IMG/VR virus record: IMGVR_UViG_3300005893_000001
Span: 1-35,858 of that record
Direction: 5' to 3' (one strand)
Origin: a virus
DNA: 35,858 bases
Below, piece by piece: positions 199 to 28,925 of this stretch (positions are counted from its first letter, which is position 1; each line of letters starts with the position of its first letter). Under the pieces are notes generated by a model, which made no database searches, was not told the origin of the DNA, and worked only from the letters and a program-made list of their open reading frames with translations. Made by a program: the position numbers and the translations under genes.

Positions 199-213
199 AG
201 GGACAGTACAGTT

Positions 214-243
214 ATGTGATCCGAATATAACAATAGATCACAT
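214..243. promoter_or_regulatory. Inverted repeat ATGTGATC-N14-GATCACAT upstream of the replication-initiator gene (candidate operator)
   Basis: Perfect 8-bp arms read directly, about 50 nt upstream of the ATG at 295. Confidence 0.4.
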
Positions 244-294
244 TTTCTGTCTACCGTCTCCTGCAAGAAAAACAACTTTTGTCAAAGGAGCCGT

Positions 295-1203
295 ATGGCT
301 AACGCAACTTCACACAGCTTCAACGTAGACTTAGCAACAAAGTACGGCGTTCACGAAGCCATAATTCTTAATCATATCATGCACTGGATCGCTTTTAACG
401 AACGGGCGAAGAAGAACTTTCATGAAGGAAAGTATTGGATGTATGAAACGCTGAAGGATATGGCAAATCATTTCCCCTATTTCTCTTTTAAGCAAGTTCG
501 TACGGCTTTGGACAACCTAGTTAAGAAAGGGGCAATCATCAAAAGCAACTTCAGTAAAAATAAATTTGACGTGACTATCTGGTATGCCCTAGAGGACAAA
601 TGCATTTTACCAAATGGGCAAATCCCATTTGCCCAAATGGGCAAATGTATAAATAAGGAAACAGATACTGAAACAGATACAGAAAAGAAAAGAACAGCGA
701 AGGCGGAAGCTGGCGCTTCCGTGTCGGACGCTGCGCGCCGACTTGTTAATATTTTTATTGAAAAAATCAAAGAGCGAGACCCGAATTTCAAGGAACCCAA
801 CCTCAAGAAGTGGGCTCTCGTCTTTGACCGTATGCATCGCATAGACGGAAGAAGCTATGAAGAGATCGAAAAGCTCCTCCTCTTCTCTCAAGGCCATGAG
901 TTCTGGTCGGGCGTAATCCTAAGCCCCGAATCGTTCCGCAAAGCTACAAGCAAGCTATTTATGCAATACAACGCCGCCATTGCCAAAACTCAACCCGAAA
1001 CGCGTAAAGAGTCCAAGTGGAAAGAAAACGCAGCCTACGCCAAGGAAATGGCCTCCCTTGACGAAGACAGAATTTTCGTAGACGAAACCACTATAACCAT
1101 CGTAATCAATCGAAACAGAAAGGAAAACTGCGTTATCCCCTTCAACGAGGAAGGATTCCACGAACAGCTAGGCTCTGCTCTTAGAAAGGCTGGTATCATA
1201 TGA
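295..1203 (+). CDS. Replication initiator / replisome-organizer-like winged-helix protein
   Basis: AAGGAG just upstream of the ATG. N-terminal segment HEAIILNHIMHWIAFNERAKKNFHEGKYWMYETLKDMANHFPYFSFKQVRTALDNLVKKGAII matches the winged-helix pattern common to phage replication-initiator N-domains. A low-complexity linker carries iteron-like DNA repeats. Confidence 0.6.
   Translation: MANATSHSFNVDLATKYGVHEAIILNHIMHWIAFNERAKKNFHEGKYWMYETLKDMANHFPYFSFKQVRTALDNLVKKGAIIKSNFSKNKFDVTIWYALEDKCILPNGQIPFAQMGKCINKETDTETDTEKKRTAKAEAGASVSDAARRLVNIFIEKIKERDPNFKEPNLKKWALVFDRMHRIDGRSYEEIEKLLLFSQGHEFWSGVILSPESFRKATSKLFMQYNAAIAKTQPETRKESKWKENAAYAKEMASLDEDRIFVDETTITIVINRNRKENCVIPFNEEGFHEQLGSALRKAGII
610..680. 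repeat. Iteron-like repeat cluster inside the initiator gene (candidate ori)
   Basis: CCAAATGGGCAAAT at 610-623 and 633-646. Palindrome GGGCAAAT-CCC-ATTTGCCC at 616-634. GAAACAGATAC at 658-668 and 670-680, followed by an A-rich stretch. All lie in the linker-coding part of the gene (ETDTETDTEKK). Confidence 0.55.
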
Positions 1204-1626: not shown

Positions 1627-1776
1627 ATGCCAATCAAAAAAGGCTCCTCTAAGAAGACAATAAGCAGCAACGTCAGCAAGCTTTCGAAAGAAGGGTACCC
1701 CCAAAAGCAAGCGATCGCAATCGCTCTCAGCTCCGCAGGTAAAAGTAAGAAAAAAAGAAGTCCAAAGAAACGTTGA
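1627..1776 (+). CDS. Small basic protein (49 aa), DUF6496-like
   Basis: From the internal ATG of ORF 1591..1776: [49 protein letters not shown]. The [11 protein letters not shown] core resembles a widespread small basic protein family (recalled from memory). Weak SD. Its 3' end overlaps the convergent XRE gene by 50 nt. Confidence 0.45.
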
Positions 1777-1963
1777 AAACGTAGGCCAGTTGCCGCCTCT
1801 CCTTATCCGTCGGAAGCTCGTCGCCACGCTCTAGACACTGATAGCGGTACATAGTCATATGCGCCCTCCTAGCAGTCTCCCTCTGCGTCAAATTCATCTG
1901 CTCTCTGAATCGCTGCAACTGCTTAGAAAAATGTGTGACTTTACGTATGTGAGGTTTCCCCAT
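1727..1963 (-). CDS. XRE/Cro-type helix-turn-helix transcriptional regulator
   Basis: [50 protein letters not shown] is a typical XRE HTH layout. Confidence 0.7.
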
Positions 1964-2264
1964 CGACTTGGGAAACTATTTTAATCGGCACAGCGTTTAA
2001 ATCAAGCTCGTCCACAAATTGAGACAAAAGGTCGAAGTCCAATGCGGGGAAATCAACCTCTCGATTTACCCAAATCGGCTCTCCCTCTATCTCCAGAGGC
2101 TTCTTGATCGCATAGTACAGCAAATTCCCCCGCCGATCCTCCTCCGTCACGCTGTAATAAAGAGCCCCATTCGGTACCGTCGCCGTAAACTCGAGAGTCC
2201 GTTTAGAATTATCATTTAACATTATCTCCATGCTATGCTTTAAGTGCTTAAGTATCATGGTCAT
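1941..2264 (-). CDS. Hypothetical protein (107 aa)
   Basis: Long ORF co-oriented with and overlapping the XRE gene start. No motif recognised. Confidence 0.5.
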   Translation of the reverse strand: MTMILKHLKHSMEIMLNDNSKRTLEFTATVPNGALYYSVTEEDRRGNLLYYAIKKPLEIEGEPIWVNREVDFPALDFDLLSQFVDELDLNAVPIKIVSQVDGETSHT

Positions 2265-2354
2265 TCATTTACCCATTAATTTCTTGAGTGTGGATTGTTC
2301 TATAAGTGTTCTATGTATTTAATTTTTTAATGGCTTTCTCTAACGATTTACCGA

Positions 2355-2600
2355 TTAAACCCCCACCAATGTTTTTGCTTGTTTTGTTGATTCAAACGTA
2401 TTGATGGTTACCCATGGCCCATACGCAATCAAAATATCTCCTTCGTCCTTAGCTTTTGTTGTGGCTAGGCGAGCATGCCCTTTGAATCGTGGATATTTAG
2501 AAATAAACTGTTTGTATGCATCATTAGCGTCTGAAAACCATGAGCTAAACACGTATTTTTCTGCTGCTGTATAGCCTGTGATTGAGAAAATTGTCTTCAT
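2355..2600 (-). CDS. Hypothetical protein (81 aa), first gene of the leftward operon
   Basis: Preceded by the conserved leader ATAACAAAAACAAGGAGAC (SD AAGGAG) also found at 28.4 kb and 19.1 kb. Confidence 0.6.
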   Translation of the reverse strand: MKTIFSITGYTAAEKYVFSSWFSDANDAYKQFISKYPRFKGHARLATTKAKDEGDILIAYGPWVTINTFESTKQAKTLVGV

Positions 2601-2659
2601 TTTAGTCTCCTTGTTTTTGTTATGGATTTAGCATAACAGAATTCGGCAATATCGCACAA
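2601..2659 (-). promoter_or_regulatory. Conserved promoter/operator/leader module, copy A
   Basis: Read on the minus strand: -35 TTGTGC (2654-2659), 18-nt spacer, TG-extended -10 TATGCT (2630-2635). Inverted repeat GTTAT-N9-ATAAC (2619-2637) spans the -10 and predicted +1. Leader is ATAACAAAAACAAGGAGAC then ATG. Confidence 0.55.
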
Positions 2660-2672: not shown

Positions 2673-2701
2673 TAGACCGTGAAAAAAAATAACATTATAT
2701 A
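2673..2701 (+). promoter_or_regulatory. Candidate rightward promoter giving a leaderless rusA mRNA
   Basis: TAGACC (2673-2678), 17 nt, TATATA (2696-2701). The ATG at 2709 is 7 nt downstream and has no SD. Confidence 0.35.
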
Positions 2702-2708
2702 TATAGAT

Positions 2709-3158
2709 ATGGTTGAAATCGTCCTACACAGGAAACCAGTTGCATTAAAACGCCCCCGTTTCGTAAGAAGGGGAATCGGCGTCGATGTAATCAATTCACA
2801 AAAGCAGCAGATGAACGCGGACTATTGGGACATTCGGGAACAATATATAGATCCCCCATTATCGGGGGCGCTAGACGTTGACCTAGAGTTTGTATTCGCC
2901 TCTAAAAAAGCAGGTCCGCGAACGGAACGCCCCGATATAGACAACCTAGTGAAATACATTCTAGACGTTGCAAATGGCCTCTTGTGGACAGATGACTCGA
3001 TCGTAGTTAAACTATCAGCAACAAAATTCAATGGTAAACACAATCAGATAACGATCAAAGTAAGGGAAATTGACCATGAGCGAAGCACCACGCCGCCCGG
3101 GACGGCCAAAGAAAGAGGAAGCCCAACCAGAAAAAAGACGAATGGGCCGCCCTCCTAA
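2709..3158 (+). CDS. rusA: RusA-family Holliday-junction resolvase
   Basis: RPDIDNLVKYILDVANGLLWTDDSIVVKLSATK matches the RusA catalytic DxDN...DD pattern. An alternative GTG start lies at 2679. The C-terminal tail overlaps the next gene. Confidence 0.8.
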   Translation: MVEIVLHRKPVALKRPRFVRRGIGVDVINSQKQQMNADYWDIREQYIDPPLSGALDVDLEFVFASKKAGPRTERPDIDNLVKYILDVANGLLWTDDSIVVKLSATKFNGKHNQITIKVREIDHERSTTPPGTAKERGSPTRKKTNGPPS

Positions 3159-3627
3159 AAATGATCCTATGTACATGAATCACAAAGAGCGGCACCAAAT
3201 GTTTGCTGACACGTCGAAGTGTTGGAAGCTCACGGAAGAATACGCGCTAGAAGTCTGTGAAAAAATGTTTCACATGATTATGACGGATGAAAGCATACTC
3301 GATATCAAAGAAATGCTCACGCGCCAGTGTCTTCCGCAATCCTCATATCTCAAGCTCAGAGAAAATTTCAAGGTGGCCTCTGATTTCCATAGTCTTGCTA
3401 AAACGATCATTGGGGCTAGGCGTGAGAAGCTTGCGCTTCACGGCAAAATTGATAGCACTATTGTAGGCAGAACGTTGCAGCATTTTGACGCGGATTATCT
3501 TGCAACCGAGATGTCAATCAAGAAGACAGCTTCCGAGCAGTCCGCCGAGTTCATCCAGCAGATGGGCGAGTTTATCCAGAAGATTCAAGCGAGCACAAAC
3601 AACAAGTTGCCCTATAAGAAAAAATGA
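3070..3627 (+). CDS. Putative terminase small subunit
   Basis: Immediately upstream of, and ATGA-coupled to, the large terminase. N-terminus has AT-hook-like basic motifs (RRPGRPKK, MGRPPK). Confidence 0.55.
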   Translation: MTMSEAPRRPGRPKKEEAQPEKRRMGRPPKNDPMYMNHKERHQMFADTSKCWKLTEEYALEVCEKMFHMIMTDESILDIKEMLTRQCLPQSSYLKLRENFKVASDFHSLAKTIIGARREKLALHGKIDSTIVGRTLQHFDADYLATEMSIKKTASEQSAEFIQQMGEFIQKIQASTNNKLPYKKK

Positions 3628-5099
3628 CGGACATTTCCTCTCTTCTTGATGACCCTCTTGTTAGGCTGGAAAACCTATATCGCATCGTCGATAAAAACGG
3701 AAAACTCATAGATTTTCGTCTCAATTGGGCGCAGCGAGAGCTTTACCACGAGATGCACAACCGCAATTGCGTGCTCAAAGCTAGACAGCTTGGAATATCG
3801 ACGTTCTATTGCCTCGTCTTGCTTGACCTTGCGCTGTTCACGCCCAACCAGACGATAGGAATCATCTCTCACTCTCTAGAGGGTGCGCAGCATCTATTCA
3901 AACGCGTCATACACGCAGCCTATGAAGGATTGCCCGAGCCGATAAAGGCTCTCTGTCCCGTGGTGAATATGTCCGCTAGAGAGATCTCATTTACCAACGG
4001 CTCCTCTATTCGTTGCGATACCACCATGCGAGGGGGAACGCTTTCCGCTCTCATGATCTCAGAGCTTGGGCCGATTTGCGCAAGGTACCCTGCAAAGGCG
4101 CAGGAGATCATTACGGGCTCTTTGAACGCACTACCTACCGATGCACTCTGCATCATTGAAAGCACGGCTGAGGGCGTTGGAAACGCGTTCCATACGATCT
4201 GCAAGCAGGCTCAGAAGAAGACGCAAAACCTATCCCCTCTCGACTTCAAGTTTTTCTTCCTTCCATGGCACAAGCACCCCGACTATTTCCTAGATTACCA
4301 CATCATTATACCGCGCTATCTCGATGAGTATTTCAGATCGCTAGAATCTCTAGGCGTTCACCTAACCGAATCGCAGAAATACTGGTATGTCAATCAATGG
4401 ACAATTTTGGGCGAGTCGATGCGCTCAGAGTATCCTTCGTTTCCCGATGAGGCGTTTGAAGTTTCATCTATAGCTAACTTCTACACGAAAGAGCTGATGG
4501 ATATCGAGAAAAACCGCTATACGCACGTTCCCTATCAGAAGCATTTGCCTTGCTACATAAGTTTAGATATCGGCGTTCATACGGCAGCGTGGATTTATCA
4601 AGTTCTACCCTCTGGACAGATCCACGTTCTCGATCACTTTTTCGACGTAGGCAGCTCATTCGACGAGATCGTTCGGCAGATCAAGAACTTACCCTATATC
4701 ATTGAGAAATGGTATTTGCCTCACGATGCAGACTCAAGGCAGCCGGGAGGCGGAAAGACCTACCTGCAGCTTCTGCAAGCATTTGGACTCAATTGTGTAG
4801 TTCTTCCCCGTGAGTCTATCGACATAGGAATAAACCGAGTCCGTCAATGTCTATCGCGCTGCTACTTTGACTCGACTCACACGGCAGACGGATTTGAGCA
4901 TCTGAAGCAGTACAAGAGGAAATACAATGCTCGTTTGGGAATGTACGGAAGCGAGCCCGAACATGATTTTTATAGTCATAGCGCAGATTCGTTACGTTAT
5001 GGAATTCTTGCAACAGAACTCTACGCCGACTCGACCAAAAAGAATACCGCTTTAGACCACCAAAACCTAAAAGCGATGGCTCGTCATTTAAAGTTTTAA
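3624..5099 (+). CDS. terL: Terminase large subunit
   Basis: RLNWAQRELYHEMHNRNCVLKARQLGISTF (ATPase N-domain pattern of podovirus-type terminases) and a C-terminal nuclease-like LPHDADSRQ. 491 aa, followed by the portal. Confidence 0.9.
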   Translation: MTDISSLLDDPLVRLENLYRIVDKNGKLIDFRLNWAQRELYHEMHNRNCVLKARQLGISTFYCLVLLDLALFTPNQTIGIISHSLEGAQHLFKRVIHAAYEGLPEPIKALCPVVNMSAREISFTNGSSIRCDTTMRGGTLSALMISELGPICARYPAKAQEIITGSLNALPTDALCIIESTAEGVGNAFHTICKQAQKKTQNLSPLDFKFFFLPWHKHPDYFLDYHIIIPRYLDEYFRSLESLGVHLTESQKYWYVNQWTILGESMRSEYPSFPDEAFEVSSIANFYTKELMDIEKNRYTHVPYQKHLPCYISLDIGVHTAAWIYQVLPSGQIHVLDHFFDVGSSFDEIVRQIKNLPYIIEKWYLPHDADSRQPGGGKTYLQLLQAFGLNCVVLPRESIDIGINRVRQCLSRCYFDSTHTADGFEHLKQYKRKYNARLGMYGSEPEHDFYSHSADSLRYGILATELYADSTKKNTALDHQNLKAMARHLKF

Positions 5100-5623: not shown

Positions 5624-7702
5624 ATGGCGAGCGAAGACGAAGTCAAGCAAGATTATAACAAATTTTGGATCTATGCAAAATCCGCATGGTCGCTCATGTG
5701 GGAACGTCAATCAGTTGCACTTCGTGCTTACGCTGGTGAGTCATGGCGCTTCGACGAGCAAACGAAGTTCCGCCAGCAGGGCAGGGACTCTCTCGAGTTC
5801 AACATTCTCCGCCCTCACATCAACATGTTTTCCGGCTACGCCCGCGATAACATCAAGTCGACGATCATCGGCCCACAGGAGCCCCAAGACCAGCAAGCAG
5901 CCGACGATCTAACAGGAGTCATGCAATGGGTCTACGAGAAAGGCGATGCGCGGAATCGCCTCCTAAACGGGTTTGACGATGCGCTCAAATCGGCGATCTC
6001 TCTCGTTGGCTTTTCGATGGACTACACGAAAGACATGGCGAATGGTGACTTTCAGTTTTGGAAGCGGTCATATAATTCATTTTGCCTAGATCCCAACTTT
6101 ACCGACCCATCACTAGCCGACTGTTCGGAAATTCTCATGCGTGACTTTGTGACACGCGACCAAGCGAAGATGCTTCTTCCGATGGTTGACCCAAAGGTGA
6201 TTGATGACGTTCCCTCCTACGTTGCCGATGACAAGTTTGTACTCCTTCGTCCCCGCAACATGCTTTGGCAAACCCGCAATCTCCTCTCATTCGATAGCTA
6301 CTATCGCCAGACAACCAAGCGCGTCAAAGTCCTAATCGATGAAGACACAGGCGAAGCGCGTGAGATGCGCGACTCTAAGATTGACATCGAAGGCCTAGAG
6401 CAGTTCTTGAAAGAGCAGTACGCAGCGACAGGGCAGCGCTTTAAAGTTGTAGAGCGCAGCAAGCCGACCATCGAGAAAAATATCATCCTTTCGGGCGTTG
6501 TAGTCTATTCGGGGCCAGATCCCACAGGGCTAGACGAGTATCCATTCGTCCCGATCATGTGCTACTTTGAGCCTCAGCTAGACGATTTCGCGATTAAGCT
6601 CACCTCTATGGGCTGGTCGCTACTCGACGCTCAGAGGACATTCAACAAGCGCCAGATGCGAAACATCGACATGATGGATCGCCTCATTACGTCCGGTTTT
6701 GCGTTTAAGCCGTCTAAGCTCATCGACACGAAAGACCTGCTTTCAAGCGGATTCCAGCTCATCGGTATGACTGATGACGCAGAGTTTGGCCGTGACGTTG
6801 TTCCCCTCTCTCAAGGAACGCTTCCCGGCGGATGGCTTGAGTTTACCGCAGAGATCCCCGGCCTAATGACACGCATTGCAGGCGCTAACGAAACGTTATT
6901 TGGTCAAGACGAAGGCGGAAATACCCAAGTATCCGGACGTCTTGCTCAAGTGAGAGCAGCTAACGGTCTACGTGCAAACCGCGCTCTATTTGACCAGTTC
7001 GAACAAGCGCAGATGTGGCTTGGAAACAAAGTCATGAAGGCGATTCAGCTAAACTTCGATGAGCGCAAATTTGCCAAGATCCTTGGAAGACAGCCAGACC
7101 CATCAGTATTTGACGTGTCGATGGATCGCTACAACACAGTCATTAAGCAAGACGTTTTGAGCCAGACTCAGAAAGATGCGTACTACTTCGAGCTTCTCCG
7201 TCTCGTTGAAATCCTTGGGCCTTCACCACCTATTAATGAAGCCTTAATAGAAGCACTTCCAATGAACGATAAGAGCGACCTTCTCAAGAAGATGGCCGCT
7301 TACCAGCAGCAACAACAGCAGCAGGCTCAAGTTCAGCAGCAAGACCAAGACCGTCTTCGCGAGCTGCAAGAGTCGCAGATAGAACAGAACTTAAGCTTAG
7401 CTCAAGAGAGACGCGCACGCGTTCTTGCCGACATAGGACTTGCAAGAGAGCGCCTATCTCAAGTAGATGCAGATAGAGCTAAAGCACAGCTAGATAGGGT
7501 GAAAGCCCTCGCAGAACTTCAAAAGCTCTCTGATGATAGGTTGATTGAACTCGTTATGTTTGCAAGGTCTTTAACGGCCGAAGCAGAGGTAAAGGATGAA
7601 GCGACACTTCTCAGAGATCTCGAGAAAGAAAAACAAATGGCCGTACAAAGCGGCCAATTAAAAAATGAGGTGAACAATGGCCAAATCATACAAGGGCAAT
7701 GA
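5624..7702 (+). CDS. Portal protein
   Basis: 692 aa in the canonical position after the terminase. Long C-terminal coiled coil with a polyQ run (YQQQQQQQAQVQQQDQDRLRELQES...) reminiscent of the barrel helix of P22-type portals. Confidence 0.8.
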   Translation: MASEDEVKQDYNKFWIYAKSAWSLMWERQSVALRAYAGESWRFDEQTKFRQQGRDSLEFNILRPHINMFSGYARDNIKSTIIGPQEPQDQQAADDLTGVMQWVYEKGDARNRLLNGFDDALKSAISLVGFSMDYTKDMANGDFQFWKRSYNSFCLDPNFTDPSLADCSEILMRDFVTRDQAKMLLPMVDPKVIDDVPSYVADDKFVLLRPRNMLWQTRNLLSFDSYYRQTTKRVKVLIDEDTGEAREMRDSKIDIEGLEQFLKEQYAATGQRFKVVERSKPTIEKNIILSGVVVYSGPDPTGLDEYPFVPIMCYFEPQLDDFAIKLTSMGWSLLDAQRTFNKRQMRNIDMMDRLITSGFAFKPSKLIDTKDLLSSGFQLIGMTDDAEFGRDVVPLSQGTLPGGWLEFTAEIPGLMTRIAGANETLFGQDEGGNTQVSGRLAQVRAANGLRANRALFDQFEQAQMWLGNKVMKAIQLNFDERKFAKILGRQPDPSVFDVSMDRYNTVIKQDVLSQTQKDAYYFELLRLVEILGPSPPINEALIEALPMNDKSDLLKKMAAYQQQQQQQAQVQQQDQDRLRELQESQIEQNLSLAQERRARVLADIGLARERLSQVDADRAKAQLDRVKALAELQKLSDDRLIELVMFARSLTAEAEVKDEATLLRDLEKEKQMAVQSGQLKNEVNNGQIIQGQ

Positions 7703-8951: not shown

Positions 8952-9890
8952 ATGGCAGTTACCACCACAACACAATTGAACCCGAACCCGTCGAATTATT
9001 TCGACAGAGTTCTTTGGGATCGCGAAAAACGTTTCGACGTTTATAACCTCTTCGGTCAAGTCCGCAGACTTCCGATGAAGAACTCCAAAACGCTTACTGT
9101 AAGACGTTTTGACAACCTCGATGACACCCCGGCGGTGCTCACCGAAGGCGTTACACCAGCACTCGAAACCGTAACAAAAGCTGACGTTAATATCGTCATC
9201 CAAGAGTTCGGTAAAGTTGTTGCTCTCACAGACCAAGTTATCATTGAAGACCAATCAGACGATGCTAACGAAGTCGCAGACATGCTCTCTCAGAACATGT
9301 TTGAGATGCTCGACAAAGTAACACGTAATACACTCGCAGCGACAAGCACCCAATTTGACGCGGTAAACGGTGTAAACGGCCTAACGCCAACAGAAATTAC
9401 TCTTGCAGATCAGGACGTAGTTGTTGATTGGCTACTTGGTAACAGTGGTAAGCGCTTTACCCCGGATATTCGTGGTACACTCGCTTTCGGTTCTAACCCT
9501 GTAGAAGCGGCTTTTTGGGCAATTATCTCTACGGATCTCCGTAAAGACGTTCGTTCATTAGCTCCTTTCTTCCCTGTATCTCAATACCCACGCGACGAAG
9601 CTCTTCAATCAGAACTTGGTTCTGTTGACGAAGTACGCTATGTAATGACATCAGCCGGATATAAAACATCAGGCGATCCAGATATCTATTACAACATGTA
9701 CTTTGCACAAAACGCGTACGGTATCGCAGATATCGACGAAGTCGCAACCGAGATGATTATAAAGCCTCTTGGATGGGGTGAAGACTACCTAAACCAACGT
9801 CAAACGATGGGTTGGAAAGGCTTCTTCGGCGCTGCTGTTGTAGTAGACGAATGGATGGCTGTTCTCCGTTGTACAAAGTCTGACGGATAA
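8952..9890 (+). CDS. Major capsid protein (HK97 fold, N4-gp56-like type)
   Basis: N-terminus MAVTTTTQLNPNPSNYFDRVLWDREKRFDVYNLFGQVRRLPMKNSKTLTVRRFDNLDDTPAVLTEGVTPA follows the pattern of this capsid family. Follows the scaffold gene. Confidence 0.85.
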   Translation: MAVTTTTQLNPNPSNYFDRVLWDREKRFDVYNLFGQVRRLPMKNSKTLTVRRFDNLDDTPAVLTEGVTPALETVTKADVNIVIQEFGKVVALTDQVIIEDQSDDANEVADMLSQNMFEMLDKVTRNTLAATSTQFDAVNGVNGLTPTEITLADQDVVVDWLLGNSGKRFTPDIRGTLAFGSNPVEAAFWAIISTDLRKDVRSLAPFFPVSQYPRDEALQSELGSVDEVRYVMTSAGYKTSGDPDIYYNMYFAQNAYGIADIDEVATEMIIKPLGWGEDYLNQRQTMGWKGFFGAAVVVDEWMAVLRCTKSDG

Positions 9891-16544: not shown

Positions 16545-18886
16545 ATAGCTCAATTTTAAAATACGCTTCTCCAGAAAAAGAAGAAAAGAAGGGTATAGAA
16601 AAATACGCTAGTCAACCATCTACACAAGAGGATTCAGGAAATGACATCTTTGCTTCAGAGCATATGCAAGAAGTTGAAAGACGCTTTAGACAAGGTCTTA
16701 GGGCTTTTGGGTCTGGATTAGGCGGTCTTCCTAAGATTGTAGCGGATATTCCTCAAACGGCTGCTAATGAGCTTTATAGGCTCTTTGCAGGAGAATATCC
16801 CACACCTTCACAACCGGGAACTGCTACTTACGAAACAGCACAGAACTTTGCTAGCCCACTAGATTTTCTACCTACTCCTCAAGACATACAACAATATATT
16901 GACGCATCAACAGGCGGTCAATACGCTCCTCAGAACTCTCAAGAGGAATTCGTAAGCCAACTTCTTACGGGCGCGGGAGCGGGTGCACCATTTGGTTTAG
17001 CAGGAGCAGCTTTTGGAGCTGGATTTACGCAGCTTGAACCAGCTTTAGATTATATTGGTGCTCCTGAACGTGTCAAAGCAGGTGCAAATTTATTGGCTCA
17101 AGCAGCTCCATTCATAGCAAAAGTTCCACGTGGAACAAAATCCCCACAATATAGCGCAGCAAAGCTATCAGCTTATGAGAGAATGGGACTCAATCCATCG
17201 ACAACACCTCTCTTCACTGAGGAAGCAACATTGAGCCGTGGCCAAAAGACGGCGATGAAGACAAACGTTGCAAAGAGTGCCTTCCAGAAAGATTTGAAAG
17301 ACATTGGAAAGGGTGCTTCTGAAGGATTTAAATCACTTTCCGAAAAAGTATCATCCAAAACATTCGAAGACCTTAGCAGTCAAGACATCGGATTGCCAAT
17401 TCCAGAAAGTTTAAAGGGTACGGCTCTTACAGAGATTCAAAACAAAGTTTCCCCTTCCGAATCCGCTCTATCTTCAGCCGATCAAGTTACCTCAGCAATA
17501 GACTCAACAATCAAAGGGCTTCGCGACGCAGCAAGAGAGCGCTACCAGTTCGTCGATGAAGTAGCAGGGAATGAAATCATCGACACGGCTCCAGTAGTAC
17601 GCTCAGCAGCGGCTATTAAACGCCGTCTAGAGCGTCCAGGTGAGTTTAAAGCAGATGTAACCAAGCGAGTGCTTACTAGCGTAGATAACCTCCTAAAAGA
17701 GATCGCCTACCCCACATCGGAAGGAAGATTCGTATCTCAAGAGATACCAATCTCAAAAGTCACCGCTCTTAAGCAAGAGATCAACCGCCTACAGAACTTC
17801 GACGTTCCCGACCAAGGTCTTAAAAACGAGCTAGGAAGACTTGGACAGGAGATGAATACTCTTGTACGAGAGAAGCTTGCCGAGAATCCAGAGGCACTCG
17901 ACGCTTACAATACCGCAGAGGCTCTATGGGCCGAGCAGGGTGAGAAGTTCGGCACTAAGTCCCCTTCTGTCTATAAGGCTAGATTCGAGACGAGAGCGCC
18001 TGAAGAGATGTTTAATGCTAAGAATCCTTCCGAGATAAGGGATTTTGCCAGAGCTTTAGAAGACACCGAGCAGGGACAGCAAGCTTTCTCCTCTTATTTG
18101 AAAGAGGTGATGAAGAGAAACGATAAGGCAAGTGATGTTGACTTTCTCCAAGAGGTTCATCGCGTTGTACCCGAACGTTTCAAAGAAGCCGTCGAAGATC
18201 AAATTAAAGTCATAGAGCCAACCTCTGATATTTCGATCAAATCTCGTAGTTTGGACAAGATTCGGCAAGATGTAGTCGAAGGCCTTCGAGTTACTGGAGA
18301 GCTACCCAAATACATTTCAGACTACGCAGGAACGCTTAAAGGACGCGATACACTCAGGAAGGCTTTAGGAAACTCACCAGAAGCAAAGCAGGTGCTACAG
18401 TCTATAGACAGAGCCTATGTGCAAAAGCTTCTAGACGGGTCGCTAAAGAATGACGGCACTCTAGATGTCAAATCCATTAAAGAACTTGCATCGAACAAGT
18501 CTACGCAGCCCGTCTTACGAGAAATAATGGGGCAAGAGGGCGTTCAGTTTATGCAGGACTTGGGAACCATCGCCGAGTCTGTGCATCAGGTACTTGAAAA
18601 ATATCCCAACATCGAGAAGCCCACCAATACGGCCTTGGATTTTCTTGCTAAGAATGCAATAGGTATATTGTTTGGAGGCAAAGCTAGCAAAGCTCTAGTT
18701 GGGACAAAGTTAATAGCTCAAGGTGGAAAAAACGCCTATGCCTCTATTCTCTTGAATAAGAAAGCAAGAGGGGCTATGCGTGATCTTCAGAAAGCTCAAA
18801 AAATGCCAGACTCAAAAGCTAAAATAGGACTGATAACAGGTAGCTTGAAGACGATACAAGAGGAATTGGGAGATGAGCTTGAATGA
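16541..18886 (+). CDS. Large putative internal virion/ejection protein (781 aa)
   Basis: ATGA coupling. Long helical protein immediately before the fibre genes. No enzymatic motif recognised. Confidence 0.5.
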   Translation: MNSSILKYASPEKEEKKGIEKYASQPSTQEDSGNDIFASEHMQEVERRFRQGLRAFGSGLGGLPKIVADIPQTAANELYRLFAGEYPTPSQPGTATYETAQNFASPLDFLPTPQDIQQYIDASTGGQYAPQNSQEEFVSQLLTGAGAGAPFGLAGAAFGAGFTQLEPALDYIGAPERVKAGANLLAQAAPFIAKVPRGTKSPQYSAAKLSAYERMGLNPSTTPLFTEEATLSRGQKTAMKTNVAKSAFQKDLKDIGKGASEGFKSLSEKVSSKTFEDLSSQDIGLPIPESLKGTALTEIQNKVSPSESALSSADQVTSAIDSTIKGLRDAARERYQFVDEVAGNEIIDTAPVVRSAAAIKRRLERPGEFKADVTKRVLTSVDNLLKEIAYPTSEGRFVSQEIPISKVTALKQEINRLQNFDVPDQGLKNELGRLGQEMNTLVREKLAENPEALDAYNTAEALWAEQGEKFGTKSPSVYKARFETRAPEEMFNAKNPSEIRDFARALEDTEQGQQAFSSYLKEVMKRNDKASDVDFLQEVHRVVPERFKEAVEDQIKVIEPTSDISIKSRSLDKIRQDVVEGLRVTGELPKYISDYAGTLKGRDTLRKALGNSPEAKQVLQSIDRAYVQKLLDGSLKNDGTLDVKSIKELASNKSTQPVLREIMGQEGVQFMQDLGTIAESVHQVLEKYPNIEKPTNTALDFLAKNAIGILFGGKASKALVGTKLIAQGGKNAYASILLNKKARGAMRDLQKAQKMPDSKAKIGLITGSLKTIQEELGDELE

Positions 18887-18992
18887 TAAATTACTCATCA
18901 TCTCCAAAGAAACAATCGAAAAAACACCATATATCGATCAAAAATGCAAACATAATAAATTTCCTTGTTTTAGGGTTAAGTTATAAGAAAGG

Positions 18993-19085
18993 CTAGGGAT
19001 GCTCCTCATAGGGTGGCCTACGATCCAGTTTCATAATGAGGCAAAAGAAAGCGTAAACCGCTACACATGAAAGAAAAATTAACAT
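18993..19085 (-). CDS. Micro-ORF (30 aa, hydrophobic) behind conserved promoter copy C
   Basis: MLIFLSCVAVYAFFCLIMKLDRRPPYEEHP, preceded by the conserved leader ATAACAAAACAAGGAGA. A second 20-aa ORF (18891..18953, MFAFLIDIWCFFDCFFGDDE) follows with AAGGAA. Confidence 0.3.
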   Translation of the reverse strand: MLIFLSCVAVYAFFCLIMKLDRRPPYEEHP

Positions 19086-19144
19086 GTTAAATCTCCTTGT
19101 TTTGTTATGAGACAAGTATAACAAAAAGAACCCAACCCCGTCAA
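19086..19144 (-). promoter_or_regulatory. Conserved promoter/operator/leader module, copy C (points antisense into the late operon)
   Basis: Minus strand: -35 TTGACG (19139-19144), 18 nt, TG-extended -10 TATACT (19115-19120). Inverted repeat TTGTTAT-N9-ATAACAA (core 19104-19122). Confidence 0.5.
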
Positions 19145-21684: not shown

Positions 21685-22520
21685 TGGCTGGAAATTTCAA
21701 TGGTACAATTTACGGAGATAACGTAGATTTTAGTGGTGGTACTCCAATCACAGGAAAAGTAACCACGGATGGACAGCTACTTATCGGTGCTACTGCCGCT
21801 CCTAATATTAGGGTGGCTACGCTTACTGAAGGCACTGGAATAGACATTGTAAACGCTGCAGGCAGCATTACAATCAGCTTCGATGGAAGCGAAGTACCCA
21901 CCATCCCTCTCAGTTTCCCTACAGATTCTGGAACAGCAACACCAGCCGCAAATGCTCTAACAGTCGCTGGTGGAACTGGAATGAACACTTCCGGAGCTGC
22001 TGCTACCGTCACTATCAATCTCGACGTACCTGTTGACGAGACAAATGGCGGAACTGCGCAGACCACATATGCAACGGGCGATATCCTATATGCCTCTGCT
22101 GCTGATACGCTCTCTAAGCTCACTATAGGAAGCGCCGGAGAAGTTCTAACTGTCACTGGTGGCGTCCCTACGTGGGAACCTGCAGCAGGAGGGGCAATCA
22201 CTTGGAACGAAGTAACAGGAACGTCTCAAAACGCAGCTGTTAACAACGCATACATAGCAAACAATGGATCTCTAGTCACTATTACTCTTCCTTCTACTTT
22301 TGCAGTCGGTGATATTGTTTGGGTAGTCGGTAAAGGATCTGGTCTTTGGAGATTAGCTGCAAATACAGGTGATACAATTCACTTTGGTAGCCAAGACACA
22401 ACAGCTGGAGGATCACTTACTGCAACGAACCGATATGATGCAGTGCAAGTGGTTGGGATGACAGCAAATAGTGATTGGGTCTGTACAGGAATTTCTCAAG
22501 GTAATTTAACGGTAGCTTAG
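21684..22520 (+). CDS. Fibre / receptor-binding-like protein (278 aa)
   Basis: DSGTATPAANALTVAGGTG module and GEVLTVTGGVPTWEP motif. The C-terminal ~105 aa are paralogous to the C-terminus of 23882..25285. Confidence 0.65.
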   Translation: MAGNFNGTIYGDNVDFSGGTPITGKVTTDGQLLIGATAAPNIRVATLTEGTGIDIVNAAGSITISFDGSEVPTIPLSFPTDSGTATPAANALTVAGGTGMNTSGAAATVTINLDVPVDETNGGTAQTTYATGDILYASAADTLSKLTIGSAGEVLTVTGGVPTWEPAAGGAITWNEVTGTSQNAAVNNAYIANNGSLVTITLPSTFAVGDIVWVVGKGSGLWRLAANTGDTIHFGSQDTTAGGSLTATNRYDAVQVVGMTANSDWVCTGISQGNLTVA

Positions 22521-23200
22521 TGGCAACACAGAACAAAGTAAATAACAGTCTTGGAACCACATCCTACGCGGTAATATGTGGTGGTACCACTGCTAGCGGA
22601 GCAGTTCAACCAGTTGCATCAGTTGGAACAAGCGGCCAAGTTCTAAAATCAAATGGGGCTGCTGCGCTTCCATCTTTTCAAGATATCACAGGTCAGGGCG
22701 CATTAGTACAAATTGGAGCAACGCAAACAGCTAGCAACTCAGCCACCATAGATTTCACATCTGGTATAGACACAACTTATGACACCTATCTTGTGGTGTG
22801 TTCAAATGTTGTCCCTGCATCTGCCACAGGGTTTTTTGCTAGATTTTCAGTCGATGGTGGAAGCAATTATTTATCAACGAATTATCAATCGGGATCTATC
22901 TTTCATACCTACAACTCAGCAACTGTTTTCAATGATAACTCTACAAGCGGTATACAACTTTCTGGCGGCCAAGTGACGACATCCACTGTTGGGATAAGTG
23001 TTTGGGTTTGGTTTTATGGTTTAGCTACATCAAACCAACCTAAAGTGTATGCAATAGGTTACTGGAATAATGGAGGGCCTGTTTCTGGTAGATACATAAC
23101 CAAAAACACAACAACTTCAGGTGTTAATGCTCTTCGATTTGCTATGAATACAGGTAATATAAGCTCTGGAAGTTTTACTCTTTTTGGTTTAAGAAAGTAG
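22520..23200 (+). CDS. Receptor-binding-like protein, paralogue 1 (226 aa, GTG start)
   Basis: MATQNKVNNSLGTTSYAVICGGTTASGAVQPVASVGTSGQVLKSNGAAALPSFQ ... SGVNALRFAMNTGNISSGSFTLFGL. Same length and end motifs as the next gene. Confidence 0.6.
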   Translation: MATQNKVNNSLGTTSYAVICGGTTASGAVQPVASVGTSGQVLKSNGAAALPSFQDITGQGALVQIGATQTASNSATIDFTSGIDTTYDTYLVVCSNVVPASATGFFARFSVDGGSNYLSTNYQSGSIFHTYNSATVFNDNSTSGIQLSGGQVTTSTVGISVWVWFYGLATSNQPKVYAIGYWNNGGPVSGRYITKNTTTSGVNALRFAMNTGNISSGSFTLFGLRK

Positions 23201-23204
23201 GTAT

Positions 23205-23885
23205 ATGGCAACACAAAATAGTGTAAATAACAGCTTAGGAACAACTGCATATGCTGTGATTTGCGGAGGAACAACCGCCACTGGAGCAGTTCAGCCAATA
23301 GCCTCTTTAGGTTCAAGTGGTCAAGTTCTTACCTCCAATGGAGCAGGCGCTCTTCCTACAATGCAAACAGCTCCTACAGCTGGCGGTATTGTACTAATTG
23401 AGACACAAACAGCTTCAAGCTCAGCAAACTTAAGTTTCACAACCGGAATTTCTTCGACTTATACTTCATACTTATTTGTGTTGAACTCAGTCATACCTGC
23501 AACGAATGCTCAAGTTCTGAATCTCACCTTCTCTGTAGATGGAGGATCTAACTATCTTGCAACGAACTATCTAGCTGGAGTCAACACCAACGCTTACAAC
23601 AGTGCTACGATTTCGAACGCAAACTCAACGACAACTATCCCTCTTACAGGATCACAAGTAAACACTGCTGCAATCGGGGTGAGTGGAAATATTTATTTAT
23701 ACAATATCACCACTGCAAACAATCCAGAAATGGTTTCCAATATCAATTGGAATGACGGCACAACTAGATTCGCTGTGGGAATTGCTAGCAACTCAACTAC
23801 TTCAGGAGTAAATGCATTCCGATTTGCTTTCGCCAGCGGAAACATCTCCTCAGGAACAATTTCACTGTATGGAATTACAAAATGA
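23205..23885 (+). CDS. Receptor-binding-like protein, paralogue 2 (226 aa)
   Basis: MATQNSVNNSLGTTAYAVICGGTTATGAVQPIASLGSSGQVLTSNGAGALPTMQ ... SGVNAFRFAFASGNISSGTISLYGI. Confidence 0.6.
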   Translation: MATQNSVNNSLGTTAYAVICGGTTATGAVQPIASLGSSGQVLTSNGAGALPTMQTAPTAGGIVLIETQTASSSANLSFTTGISSTYTSYLFVLNSVIPATNAQVLNLTFSVDGGSNYLATNYLAGVNTNAYNSATISNANSTTTIPLTGSQVNTAAIGVSGNIYLYNITTANNPEMVSNINWNDGTTRFAVGIASNSTTSGVNAFRFAFASGNISSGTISLYGITK

Positions 23886-25915: not shown

Positions 25916-26067
25916 AATCCTTATCACTTTTTCTTACACTTGCAATACTCACTGGATGCGGTTTAAACGTGGCAATACGCGCAGGCATTGACATCGACCC
26001 AAGCATTGAAAGATTAACTAACGACATCCGTCAAATAATGGATGAGCAAAAAGGGGACAAAGAATGA
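25912..26067 (+). CDS. Small lipoprotein (51 aa)
   Basis: Not in the track (under 60 aa). MKSLSLFLTLAILTGCGLNV... with lipobox LTGC. ATGA overlap with the upstream stop. Confidence 0.55.
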   Translation: MKSLSLFLTLAILTGCGLNVAIRAGIDIDPSIERLTNDIRQIMDEQKGDKE

Positions 26068-26204
26068 GAAAGCAGACAATGGCAGATCGCATGGACGAAT
26101 CACTTGGCATGCGAAGAGGAAAAGAGTCAAAGAAAAAGCAAAGCTACAAGTCTCGCCGTGACGAGTCTAAGGGCGCTAAAAAGAAGAAGAAGGGCTGCAA
26201 ATGA
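26064..26204 (+). CDS. Small polybasic protein (46 aa)
   Basis: MRKQTMADRMDESLGMRRGKESKKKQSYKSRRDESKGAKKKKKGCK. ATGA coupling. The DESLGMR..GKES core resembles a recurrent small phage/bacterial protein family (from memory). Confidence 0.45.
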   Translation: MRKQTMADRMDESLGMRRGKESKKKQSYKSRRDESKGAKKKKKGCK

Positions 26205-26365
26205 AAGCGACAAAGTCTAAGAAGTACAGCATCAAAGACGTAAAGAAAGGCATTAAGCGTGGCGGTGAGCCGGGCTTCTCAATGCAGACAGGCGGACTTG
26301 ATTACGAGAAAGGCGACAAGCCTGCTGGTAAAAAGAAAGTAGCTAAGAAGAAGAAAAAGCGCTAA
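26201..26365 (+). CDS. Small polybasic protein (54 aa)
   Basis: MKATKSKKYSIKDVKKGIKRGGEPGFSMQTGGLDYEKGDKPAGKKKVAKKKKKR. ATGA coupling. Confidence 0.4.
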   Translation: MKATKSKKYSIKDVKKGIKRGGEPGFSMQTGGLDYEKGDKPAGKKKVAKKKKKR

Positions 26366-26650: not shown

Positions 26651-26682
26651 GAAGGGCCGTCGCAACGCGGCCCTTCTTTTTT
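26651..26682 (+). terminator. Strong intrinsic terminator of the rightward late operon (unidirectional)
   Basis: GAAGGGCCG-TCGCAACG-CGGCCCTTC followed by TTTTTT. Read on the minus strand no T-run follows. Confidence 0.75.
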
Positions 26683-27535
26683 ACTTACGAACCCGAATGG
26701 TGAAACGCACTGTTTCAGGGTTGCGGTACTTCTCCAAGTCGATATTCTTAAGCTCTGGAATCTCCTTATAGTTGATAGATCCCAAAGACTTTGACCTAAC
26801 AAAAGAGAGATGCTTTCCGTAGGATTTCTCCTCCACGCAGCGCTCCTCAAATCTCTTGCGGATCTCCTCTTTCTTCTCTTCAAGCGATGAGATTGTATCG
26901 AGAAGAGCCAAGTATTCCAGCTCTAGGCGCTCTGTCTCTTCGTCTGTGAGGAGATTGGTTGGAGGGGTATCATTCATCACGCTTTGCCAGAAAGCCTCTT
27001 CTAGCTCGTTTAAACGCGAAATATAGGCATCGTCGCGTGCTATCAGCATTGAGAATCCTTCCTCGTCAAAACCGTTACGAAACCAGAAATAAAGCACTAC
27101 CGAAGGAGAGCCTGTCACAGCCATTTGATGTTGGCACTGTGCATAGTAGTAGTCAGGAGGTGTTTTAGTCTCCTTAAGCTTATTGTAGCGGTCATATGTG
27201 AAGGGGCATTTTATCTCCACATAGAGGCTCTTATCGGGTGAAACGCCATCAAGAGAGGCCATTTGCCAAGGGCGCTCAGGAGAAAAAACAACATCGGGAA
27301 GCACGAAGCATCCTCTCTCTCTCTCAAAGAAGCGTCTTGCGTCCTCTTCTGAACGCTGTCCATGTTCCATTGCAGCATTCATCTCAGGCTCTGGCCTTCG
27401 ATTCGTTTTGATTTCCCAAAGCTCGTGAAGGGGCATGTATCCACACCCCATGATTACCGCTGCATCAGAGGAACCGACTTTGGTTTTCCTTAGTGCTTTC
27501 CACTCATCAGATCCCTGTTTCATTTGTAACCTCAA
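26681..27535 (-). CDS. YqaJ / lambda-Exo-like recombination exonuclease
   Basis: MKQGSDEWKALRKTKVGSSDAAVIMG...HELWEIKT...EHGQRSEEDAR...ASLDG...VEIKCP is the YqaJ PD-(D/E)XK pattern. The likely start is the ATG at 27523. Confidence 0.85.
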   Translation of the reverse strand: MRLQMKQGSDEWKALRKTKVGSSDAAVIMGCGYMPLHELWEIKTNRRPEPEMNAAMEHGQRSEEDARRFFERERGCFVLPDVVFSPERPWQMASLDGVSPDKSLYVEIKCPFTYDRYNKLKETKTPPDYYYAQCQHQMAVTGSPSVVLYFWFRNGFDEEGFSMLIARDDAYISRLNELEEAFWQSVMNDTPPTNLLTDEETERLELEYLALLDTISSLEEKKEEIRKRFEERCVEEKSYGKHLSFVRSKSLGSINYKEIPELKNIDLEKYRNPETVRFTIRVRK

Positions 27536-28238
27536 CTGTTTCCTTTTGAACCTTAAGAGCTTGCAGATATTTTACCACATTCTCCACGTCTTTAGCAGGG
27601 ATATTATCCAGTGCTTTGTAACGTGTGAGCAGGTTGTCTCTTGCCTTTGTGAACTCTTCGCAAAGTGAGGTAACGAGTGCTAATTGCTCCTCGCCGATCT
27701 TCTCTTCTGGAATCGGCTCAACAGTGATAGCAGGCTCTTTGATCTCTTCTGCTTCATCGGGATCATAGACCACGCTGCTAAGGACATCGGGGAAGTGCAC
27801 TCTTTGCAATAGAGAGATGCAACGAGCAAAGAGCATCTCTTTCGTGTGCTTCTTCCAATTGTCCTTGTTTAGGAGGCCCGCCATCGCTGCTTCGTCGATC
27901 CCGTAGGATACCTCTTCGCCCTTGGTTTCGCCCTTACGGATACCCTTAAGACGGCAAACTTTGTTCGTCCACTCGACAATCTCAACGCGGTGTCCGTGCT
28001 TCCTAATCATGCGATTTCTAGCATCAGCAGAGAGCGTTGGCCTTCCACTAACCAGATAGAGACCCTCCAGAGATTCGATAGGAGATAATCCCATATCGCG
28101 CCCTTTCATCAACAGCATCAGGATTTCCCCTGGCTTTTTACCAGCATGTTGAGGCATCGCCTGAACCAGCTTGGCAAAAGCAGAGAGCTGTTCTACGATC
28201 TGCAAGTCTCGTGTGATAGGTACAAGTTCATTATCCAT
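27507..28238 (-). CDS. recT: RecT/Red-beta-family single-strand annealing protein
   Basis: MGLSPIESLEGLYLVSGRPTLSADARNRMIRKHG ... NWKKHTKEMLFARCISLLQRVHFPDVLSSVVYDPDEAEE parallels the GL.P ... W..hp..ML..+a ... Y..DE pattern of Bet/RecT. Upstream of the exonuclease, as in lambda bet-exo. Confidence 0.7.
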   Translation of the reverse strand: MDNELVPITRDLQIVEQLSAFAKLVQAMPQHAGKKPGEILMLLMKGRDMGLSPIESLEGLYLVSGRPTLSADARNRMIRKHGHRVEIVEWTNKVCRLKGIRKGETKGEEVSYGIDEAAMAGLLNKDNWKKHTKEMLFARCISLLQRVHFPDVLSSVVYDPDEAEEIKEPAITVEPIPEEKIGEEQLALVTSLCEEFTKARDNLLTRYKALDNIPAKDVENVVKYLQALKVQKETVEVTNETGI

Positions 28239-28399
28239 TAGAACGCTCCTTCTTTGATGGCTCTTAATACGCCTACGGCAGCGATGAAATATTTAGCGTC
28301 GCAGTTTAGGATCTCAATTATGTTCTCAGCTTGTACCATCTCCTCTTGAGAGACAGGCTTATCAAGCGCCTTTTCCCTAGCTTCAAAAGTGTATTTCAT
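28238..28399 (-). CDS. Small protein (53 aa) in the position of lambda gam
   Basis: Start chosen at the internal ATG preceded by the conserved leader/SD: MKYTFEAREKALDKPVSQEEMVQAENIIEILNCDAKYFIAAVGVLRAIKEGAF. Confidence 0.5.
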   Translation of the reverse strand: MKYTFEAREKALDKPVSQEEMVQAENIIEILNCDAKYFIAAVGVLRAIKEGAF

Positions 28400-28458
28400 G
28401 TGTAGTCTCCTTGTTTTTGTTATACGATAAGCATAACGAAACCACAGGATTTGCACAA
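28400..28458 (-). promoter_or_regulatory. Conserved promoter/operator/leader module, copy B
   Basis: Minus strand: -35 TTGTGC (28453-28458), 17 nt, -10 TATGCT (28430-28435). Inverted repeat GTTAT-N9-ATAAC (28419-28437). Leader ATAACAAAAACAAGGAGAC. Confidence 0.55.
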
Positions 28459-28473
28459 GCATTTTCTTGTCTA

Positions 28474-28502: not shown

Positions 28503-28511
28503 CGTTATGCT

Positions 28512-28925
28512 ATGGGCAGACCTAAAATTGTAAAATCTCCTTTAATGCAGCACTTGGTTGATTTAGACATAACGCTTGATAAATTCGCCAAGAAACATAA
28601 GCTGAACCCCACTACATTCAGACTCGTCTTAGGAGGCCACTACAGGCCATCTAAAGAGCTTCTTAAGCGCATTTTGGAAGCTTATGGGGGTAAGTTCACA
28701 GAGGAACAAGTCCTCAACATATTCAAGAAGCGAAGGAATAAAGACAACATCGTCAAGACCCGCGTTTCTTATTCCGATTACCTCTACCTTCAAAGCGTAG
28801 CCCTTAAAAAATCGACCGATATTTCCTCATTAGTTTATGATGCGATAAACAAAAGCTACCTACGAAAAATGAGGGAATATGACACCCCCAAGCTCACCGC
28901 GAAAAGTAACTCTAAGCGAAAATGA
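28512..28925 (+). CDS. HTH DNA-binding protein (candidate repressor/Cro-like regulator)
   Basis: MGRPKIVKSPLMQHLVDLDITLDKFAKKHKLNPTTFRLVLGGHYRPSKELLKRILEAYGG. First gene of the rightward unit at a divergent promoter region. Confidence 0.6.
   Translation: MGRPKIVKSPLMQHLVDLDITLDKFAKKHKLNPTTFRLVLGGHYRPSKELLKRILEAYGGKFTEEQVLNIFKKRRNKDNIVKTRVSYSDYLYLQSVALKKSTDISSLVYDAINKSYLRKMREYDTPKLTAKSNSKRK

Follow-up and report, generated by a model that had tools for sequence, protein, structure and literature searches.

The minus strand of an uncultivated tailed phage (IMG/VR record IMGVR_UViG_3300005893_000001; 35,858 bases, a complete phage contig called the window throughout) carries three copies of a promoter-like sequence with an inverted repeat and a leader, one of them at 2601..2659, and the question raised by these sites is whether a single regulator controls the genes behind them. 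By reading each copy directly, we found the three modules where the first-pass annotation of the window had placed them (Table 1). The three sites are very probably co-functional promoter/leader modules. The fuller reading, in which an operator is superimposed on each start module and a Cro-like protein would shut the units off, has in our estimate a probability of about 0.5.

Copies 1 and 2 share three blocks letter for letter, TTGTGC, GTTATGCT, and ATAACAAAAACAAGGAGACTA (6 + 8 + 21 nucleotides, nt), and the 17- or 18-nt spacer and 6-nt discriminator between these blocks are unrelated. Perfect blocks separated by unrelated spacers therefore suggest selection on function, not a recent duplication. 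All elements stand as they had been written in the first-pass annotation, except that it omitted the 4-6 nt between the Shine–Dalgarno (SD) sequence and the ATG. The conserved downstream block starts 7 nt past the −10 hexamer, at the expected +1, and the predicted transcript would begin AUAACAAAA. In a genome scan, copies 1 and 2 matched the 18-nt leader exactly, with 0.07 matches expected even at up to three mismatches. Over the three copies the leader is 17-21 nt long and carries AAGGAGA about 4-7 nt before the ATG of three unrelated open reading frames (ORFs); every copy lies directly ahead of an ATG-initiated ORF with a strong SD, and A/T-rich tracts lie upstream of every −35-like hexamer. 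The first 60 nt of the predicted transcript gave a folding energy of −4.1 kcal/mol for the unit behind copy 1 (unit 1), with most of the SD unpaired, and −1.9 kcal/mol for unit 2, so that both are nearly unstructured; for unit 3 the value was −10 kcal/mol, and the SD of its first ORF is partly paired.

The core promoter elements resemble those of extended −10 (TGn) sigma-70/sigma-A promoters. The TG-n-TAnnnT arrangement, with TG one base upstream of the hexamer and invariant A2 and T6, is found here too, in the forms TG-T-TATGCT, cG-T-TATGCT, and TG-T-TATACT in copies 1, 2, and 3, together with a tolerated weak −35, a spacer of 17-18 nt (18, 17, and 18 nt), and A/T-rich upstream DNA. They differ from that class in that TG is reduced to CG in copy 2, which keeps the G only, and in that TTGTGC is far from the consensus and yet identical in copies 1 and 2. 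Compared with TTGACA, TTGTGC matches at 3/6 positions and the TTGACG of copy 3 at 5/6. Copy 3 is the best sigma-70 match (10/12 plus TG) and the only copy passing our promoter scan, whose cut-off was a 9/12 match to the sigma-70 consensus. The shared non-consensus TTGTGC hints at extra constraint, and this hexamer is TTGTGT in the one diverged relative that covers a copy.

The first-pass annotation had described an inverted repeat spanning the −10 hexamer and the predicted start, as expected of a repressor operator. Both the repeat and its placement are borne out, and the dyad proved longer than noted. We found that exact GTTAT-N9-ATAAC occurs at three sites genome-wide, which are the three copies; at up to one mismatch there are four matches against 0.83 expected. 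The plus strand holds 31 GTTAT and 43 ATAAC, which gives about 0.04 matches expected per spacing, and among spacings from N3 to N20 the sole further GTTAT/ATAAC site is an N11 at 211-231. The symmetry runs to 27 base pairs (bp) with 9-bp arms, TTTYGTTAT-N9-ATAACAAAA, and TTTTGTTAT-N9-ATAACAAAA at up to three mismatches matched the three copies alone, against 0.05 matches expected. In all three modules the dyad covers about −18 to +9 and thus overlaps the core promoter and the start. The 4 nt upstream of GTTAT (TTCT, TTTC, and TTTT) complement the AAAA of the leader in three otherwise unrelated spacers; the chance probability of this T-rich extension is estimated at about 6e-4 to 1e-2, a value that hinges on the usual T-richness of promoter spacers, and as evidence for the dyad it is suggestive and not decisive. 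Taken together, the dyad is a putative protein operator, a call that we place at even odds. A role as an RNA hairpin was rejected as unlikely, since the dyads fold only weakly as RNA (−4 to −9 kcal/mol) and transcripts from the predicted start would not include the left arm. We also rejected a 10-bp inverted repeat in the 28400-28511 switch region, AGCATAACGA/TCGTTATGCT, which had resembled a further pair of operators; in the diverged relative its right copy is replaced by GTTATACCT.

The genes behind the modules were described in the first-pass annotation as an XRE operon, a Red-like recombination operon, and an antisense unit in the late region, and these descriptions hold. The last gene of unit 1 encodes a 78-amino-acid (aa) protein with a helix-turn-helix (HTH) of the XRE type, which matched Pfam HTH_3 at 26.3 bits (cutoff 23), HTH_31 at 27 bits, and the PHROG category 'transcriptional repressor', and gave a weak match to the solved structure 8tac (E = 0.0085). 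In contig L072, a strain variant that is 98.9% identical overall, 17 of the 21 differences fall in the XRE gene (window 1805-1934), and only two conservative amino acid changes result, T37S and C43T, each located around the predicted recognition helix. Because 17 nt differences stand against two at the protein level, the XRE protein is real and under purifying selection; the L072 gene looks like a recombined allele under strong purifying selection. This protein is a candidate autoregulator, and we put it forward only tentatively as the binder of the dyad. The 90-nt gap at 2265-2354, between the 81-aa and 107-aa genes of unit 1, holds two direct repeats ATAGAACA, 11 bp apart (2300-2325, minus strand), which may be an internal regulatory site.

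Pfam and PHROG identified the RecT-like and YqaJ/RecE-like genes of unit 2. Unit 3 lies on the minus strand inside the structural-gene block and consists of two tiny hydrophobic ORFs, antisense between two large structural-region genes; the ribosome-binding-site region of the second ORF is a near-duplicate, AAAACAAGGAAATTTATTATG. No terminator was predicted downstream of unit 3. Its 30-aa peptide has one predicted membrane helix and a charged tail. The two peptides could be toxin-like or exclusion peptides, or the unit could be a source of antisense transcription into the late operon. The first-pass annotation had also named an HTH protein at 28512..28925, and this assignment could not be confirmed. 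The 137-aa product had no Pfam, PHROG, or PDB match, and its N-terminus is HTH-like by eye only. Its single-sequence AlphaFold model, at a predicted local distance difference test (pLDDT) value of 52, was too poor for a structure search, and its sole match among 1.8 billion representatives was the representative of its own 50% cluster, 89% identical.

The repeats, their block structure and placement at the gene starts, the dyad, and the HTH gene are plain in the sequence; transcription from the modules, its start point, and the binding of a given protein are predictions, and on them we build the following model. Each copy would be a host sigma-70/sigma-A-type promoter that relies mainly on its extended −10 (TG-n-TAnnnT), with a weak or moderate −35. 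Transcription would start at the A of ATAAC and give an A-rich leader of 23-25 nt with a strong AAGGAGA SD and, in units 1 and 2, little predicted pairing. A dimeric DNA-binding protein would bind the 27-bp dyad as its operator and so block RNA polymerase. The XRE/Cro-like protein is the best candidate for this role, a natural one because its gene is the last of unit 1. As this protein builds up, it would exert negative feedback on its own operon and, at the same time, lower expression of the RecT/exonuclease operon and of the antisense unit with two peptides, resulting in a Cro-like shut-off of early leftward transcription.

To examine conservation, we compared the window with related contigs. 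Contigs L011-L013 and L063-L070 are the same phage at 99.3-100% identity and carry no conservation signal; the changes of L069 at 2639 and 2644, near copy 1, lie about 30 nt from the contig end and were not trusted. The single diverged relative covering a copy is L062 (run SRR24200879, 3,854 bp), which was reached via a match to the 137-aa protein and is 87% identical to window 26041-29847 with the same gene order. The relative in this run is represented by two contigs, L062 and L071, at 83-88% identity. In L062, copy 2 lies inside a 51-nt perfect run (28402-28452) that extends from the SD through the leader, both arms, and the −10 across most of the spacer; outside it, the −35-like hexamer differs as given above and the rightward GTTATGCT has become GTTATACCT. 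The run is consistent with constraint and does not single out the arms. Contigs L015-L017, whose RecT is 67% identical, share the exonuclease, the tail-fibre genes, and several ORFans. L018, with a RecT 83% identical, ends within the 53-aa gene. The module is absent from the more distant L015 and L016.

Scans with the exact dyad-plus-leader pattern found no match in IMG/VR, two in GTDB genomes, and six in metagenomes. The GTDB and metagenome matches were rejected as relatives; they are unrelated promoters without protein similarity to the window, attributable to convergence or chance. The dyad alone gave 43 single matches in IMG/VR, mostly in AT-rich or giant-virus contigs and none with the leader. 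One of the exact-pattern matches, at 700-790 of the unrelated metagenomic contig L010 (JABUBO010029886.1), has TTTTGTTAT-N9-ATAACAAAAACAAGGAGG directly upstream of a 125-aa XRE-family gene. L010 has no protein similarity to the window, and the site could be a coincidence or a dyad/leader design that recurs with XRE genes.

Several observations weigh against an operator bound by a Cro-like protein. The left arm, GTTAT, is itself the extended −10 motif (TG-n-TAT), and G/CGTTAT recurs at the −10 of three promoter-like sites without the leader (Table 1); because the left arm coincides with the extended −10, the independent evidence for a dyad is confined to the right arm, the T-rich extension, and the fixed N9. 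Half-site centres lie 14 bp apart for the core and 18 bp apart for the 9-bp arms, and the typical half-site spacing of small Cro-type HTH dimers is shorter, about 10 bp. The 51-nt run is only the seventh longest in the 3.8-kb L062 alignment and takes in the non-consensus spacer, and L015, L016, and L017 have a different region upstream of RecT with no analogous repeated module. The combination TGTTATAAT...ATAACAAAACAAGGAGG arises by convergence in unrelated metagenomic promoters. A word search returned no homologues of the XRE protein, and none with characterised operators was detectable. Finally, copies 1 and 2 match the sigma-70 hexamers at only 3/6 + 4/6 = 7/12 positions and were not called by the consensus scan.

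Some of these observations also favour a promoter and leader without any operator, in which the symmetry is a by-product of an extended −10 joined to a conserved transcript start. The three units would then simply share a strong extended −10 promoter and an A-rich, strong-SD leader tuned for high early expression, and ATAAC would be kept for initiation, promoter escape, or properties of the mRNA 5' end. The leader-free G/CGTTAT sites fit such an arrangement, as do the beginning of the conserved block exactly at the predicted +1, the recurrence of TGTTATA(A/C)T-N-ATAACAAAACAAGGAGG in unrelated metagenomic promoters and those of metagenome-assembled genomes, the near-chance frequency of half-sites elsewhere in the genome, and the candidate status of the dyad binder. 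This explanation does not account for symmetry that continues 4 nt past GTTAT into unrelated spacers in all three copies (8/9, 8/9, and 9/9), for an N9 arm spacing that stays constant against a variable leader length and a −35 spacing of either 17 or 18 nt, or for the location of all four GTTAT-N(3-20)-ATAAC sites of the genome at leftward promoter-like elements. We consider it the strongest competitor and still clearly less probable than an even chance.

The remaining explanations are much less probable. An RNA-binding protein or small RNA might recognise AUAACAAAAACAAGGAGAC in the leader, and not the DNA dyad, and control translation or stability of the three mRNAs. Conservation of a 17-21 nt leader including the SD would suit this, and so would the leader-like 16-mer at 7-22, which is antisense and abuts an intrinsic terminator of the minus strand; a candidate RNA would be transcribed from the minus strand and terminate at hairpin 35784-35762. 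Immediately 5' of this hairpin, CCUCUUGUUUUUGUUU (the complement of 7-22) could pair with 15/16 leader and SD positions, the duplex predicted with leaders 1 and 2 has about −15 kcal/mol, and 253-224, about 240 nt upstream, resembles a leftward promoter. However, shuffled U-rich sequence reaches a duplex energy only marginally worse (p = 0.03-0.1), most transcripts from 253-224 would end at a hairpin with a U-run at about 196-150, the RNA has no Rfam match, and it is hypothetical; we judge such control improbable. Equally improbable is a two-level regulon element that unites both layers: the right arm of the operator would double as the first nine transcript bases, a Cro-like protein would act together with an anti-leader RNA (minus strand 35806-35785, by the terminator) or an RNA-binding protein, and unit 3 would be a timed toxin-like or late-gene-interference device under the same switch. 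An operator for a host regulator, tying early leftward expression to host physiology, is perhaps a shade less probable again. It would be compatible with a real dyad and with the XRE protein, the only recognisable DNA-binding protein of the phage, having no characterised relatives. Against it, the IMG/VR dyad scan gave only single matches in AT-rich genomes and none with the leader, and to our knowledge the dyad fits no consensus of LexA, Rex, CRP, Fur, or ArcA. Least probable, and already disfavoured, is the view that the copies are neutral relics of a duplicated segment or of a recombination junction and were never selected for a shared function. The mosaicism of phage genomes and the absence of the module from relatives that carry a related RecT would fit it, but identity is limited to the −35, −10, +1/leader, and SD blocks with unrelated DNA between them, the three copies share position and orientation relative to the start codon, and copy 2 is unchanged in L062 at 87% identity.

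The start module does not precede every leftward unit, as had been claimed. The leftward block of 2.4 kb at 33299-35721 lacks it, and possibly so does the leftward gene 26362-26526, which lies behind the terminator-like hairpin downstream of unit 2 with no module. The 33299-35721 block begins with TTGCGG-N17-TATCAT and an ATG 6 nt later, without an SD, the leader, or the ATAAC arm, and is of the leaderless type. The claim that a degenerate leader opens the terminal repeat does not hold as worded either: the sequence at 7-22 is on the opposite (plus) strand, departs from the leader at 5/18 positions, and is not followed by a start codon. A possible fourth, divergent member at 205..253 has its own perfect 8-bp inverted repeat, ATGTGATC-N14-GATCACAT, around the −10, with neither the conserved leader nor an ORF behind it. 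Downstream of the promoter-like site 253-224, the hairpin at about 196-150 has a 10-bp stem (CCGATTC...GAATCGG) and a U-run, and minus strand 138-253 holds a candidate small RNA of about 60-70 nt beside the replication initiator gene, with a modelled fold z-score of only −1.9.

Genes 28512, RusA (ATG 2709), and 35721 lack an SD and have a −10-like hexamer 6-9 nt ahead of their ATG, indicating leaderless-type starts. The 8-bp palindrome TAACGTTA occurs three times in the genome (0.33 expected), among them at 31610-31617 (plus strand) and 35732-35739, and overlaps the −10 TATCAT of TTGGCA-N17-TATCAT (gene 31659) and of TTGCGG-N17-TATCAT (gene 35721). These sites may form a second promoter or operator class.

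Table 1. Positions of the modules, dyads, transcription units, promoter-like sites, and other genes in the window
Feature	Position	Strand	Details
Module copy 1	2601..2659	-	TTGTGC-N18-TATGCT-aaatcc-ATAACAAAAACAAGGAGAC-taaa-ATG(2600); TTGTGC 2659-2654, 18-nt spacer, TG-T-TATGCT, predicted +1 A2623, leader ATAACAAAAACAAGGAGACTA, ATG 2600
Module copy 2	28400..28458	-	TTGTGC-N17-TATGCT-tatcgt-ATAACAAAAACAAGGAGAC-tacac-ATG(28399); TTGTGC 28458-28453, 17-nt spacer, cG-T-TATGCT, predicted +1 A28423, same 21-nt leader, ATG 28399
Module copy 3	19086..19144	-	TTGACG-N18-TATACT-tgtctc-ATAACAAAACAAGGAGA-tttaac-ATG(19085); TTGACG, 18-nt spacer, TG-T-TATACT, predicted +1 A19108, leader ATAACAAAACAAGGAGA one A shorter, ATG 19085
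Dyad copy 1	2615..2641		TTCTGTTAT-gctaaatcc-ATAACAAAA; 8/9 arm positions complementary
Dyad copy 2	28415..28441		TTTCGTTAT-gcttatcgt-ATAACAAAA; 8/9
Dyad copy 3	19100..19126		TTTTGTTAT-acttgtctc-ATAACAAAA; 9/9, perfect
Unit 1	1727..2600	-	81-aa ORFan 2355-2600, 107-aa ORFan 1941-2264, 78-aa XRE-type HTH 1727-1963
Unit 2	26681..28399	-	53-aa ORFan 28238-28399, RecT-like annealing protein 27507-28238, YqaJ/RecE-like exonuclease 26681-27535
Terminator-like hairpin	26606-26580	-	downstream of unit 2
Unit 3	18891..19085	-	30 aa MLIFLSCVAVYAFFCLIMKLDRRPPYEEHP 18993-19085; 20 aa MFAFLIDIWCFFDCFFGDDE 18891-18953
Possible fourth, divergent member	205..253	-	TAGACA-N18-TG-T-TATATT with GTTAT-N11-ATAAC
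G/CGTTAT promoter-like site	28503-28508	+	before gene 28512
G/CGTTAT promoter-like site	31612	+	before gene 31659
G/CGTTAT promoter-like site	35737	-	before gene 35721
Leaderless-type start	28497-28514	+	operon-first gene, in contrast to the strong-SD leader of the module
Leaderless-type start	2696-2711	+	operon-first gene, in the same contrast
Leaderless-type start	35721-35750	-	operon-first gene, in the same contrast
DnaD/O-like replication initiator	295-1203	+	by annotation
RusA gene		+	rightward block; true start probably ATG at 2709
Large terminase	3624-5099	+	rightward block
Portal	5624-7702	+	rightward block
Major head protein	8952-9890	+	rightward block
Tail and lysis genes	to ~26.4 kb	+	end of long rightward block
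ORFan block	28512-33164	+	rightward
Block of ~10 ORFans	33299-35721	-	leftward

The 80 nt at 1-80 are identical to 35779-35858. The independent contigs L063 and L064 of the same phage cross the junction with the 80 nt present once, and the ENA assembly of the same genome has 35,919 nt = 35,778 + 141, the overlap expected of a k = 141 assembler; the 80-nt 'terminal repeat' is therefore an assembly overlap and not a demonstrated physical end. The genome is 35,778 bp, circular or circularly permuted in the assembly. Early genes are mostly ORFans. No integrase, CI-like repressor, or lysogeny module was found by Pfam, PHROG, and further protein annotation of the window, megablast against 50,697 phage records gave no match, and Rfam and tRNA scans of the window were empty. 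The closest homologue of the large terminase (TerL) among 5.8 billion proteins is 53% identical, and its contig (L014) lacks the module; IMG/VR scans with RecT and TerL returned only remote relatives or none.

We also observed three kinds of repeats elsewhere in the genome. A 160-nt direct repeat (22512-22671 and 23197-23356, 71% identity) marks adjacent paralogous 226-aa genes, 22520-23200 and 23205-23885, which are the best-conserved genes in L015 and L016. Iteron-like 21-nt repeats, CATTTKMCCAAATGGGCAAAT, at 603-646 and 1280-1300, within the replication initiator gene, are a likely origin, and L015 has an analogous three-copy array at 18458-18538. Two related non-coding elements on the plus strand, at 31420-31590 and 33165-33295, have GC every 5 nt over about 15-20 units (pentamers of the GATGC, AGTGC, and TTAGC type; TRF periods 5, 10, 15, and 20), and downstream of each come a conserved GGAGCCGGA-N-CCGGAC motif and a strong intrinsic terminator. 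They had no Rfam match; possible roles are those of a structured RNA, a decoy RNA, or an array of protein-binding sites.

Among known systems, the control of early promoters by Cro/CI-type proteins (lambda OL/OR with Cro, and small XRE/Cro-like repressors of temperate and virulent phages) is similar in that a dyad lies over the core promoter and is repeated at several promoters, divergent or early, and in that a small single-domain XRE HTH gene in one target operon would give negative feedback. The phage studied here differs in having one site per promoter in place of tandem operators, in the dispersal of the sites 9-16 kb apart instead of in one clustered switch region, in putative operator arms centred 14-18 bp apart, and in the absence of a CI-like partner, integrase, or lysogeny module. 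In Cluster K mycobacteriophages, the conserved asymmetric start-associated sequence (SAS) GGGATAGGAGCCC contains an SD and lies 3-8 nt upstream of the ATG of non-structural genes of different families (Pope et al. 2011, PMC3203893). It is found in Cluster K phages only, at 11-19 copies per genome, inside operons without a promoter, and roughly half of the copies have an imperfect inverted repeat (extended SAS, ESAS), with 17-bp arms and a variable 4-13 bp spacer, just upstream, where the authors suspect protein binding (PMC3203893). Our modules likewise have a conserved SD-containing sequence just before the ATG of unrelated genes and an inverted repeat upstream; with three copies, 9-bp arms, a fixed N9, a repeat over the promoter −10, and no sequence relationship, the comparison is one of analogy and not of membership. 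The stoperators of Cluster A phages (L5 gp71), which are contrasted with SAS in the same report (PMC3203893), are 13-bp asymmetric sites that number about 20-30 and mostly lie inside genes or in the gaps between them, away from promoters. They are similar in that one repressor site is dispersed over the genome with its orientation tied to the direction of transcription, whereas the three sites of this phage are symmetric and each overlaps a promoter.

Operators shared between early promoters are the ordinary, textbook way in which phages switch early genes together. The finding is thus conceptually ordinary, and its value lies mainly in the annotation of this phage. If the reading is true, a phage lineage with almost no annotated relatives would have a compact, testable regulon in which one candidate Cro-like regulator acts through a single short operator on three defined targets, including the RecT/exonuclease operon and an unusual antisense two-peptide unit inside the structural genes, and the promoter/leader block could serve as a compact expression module.

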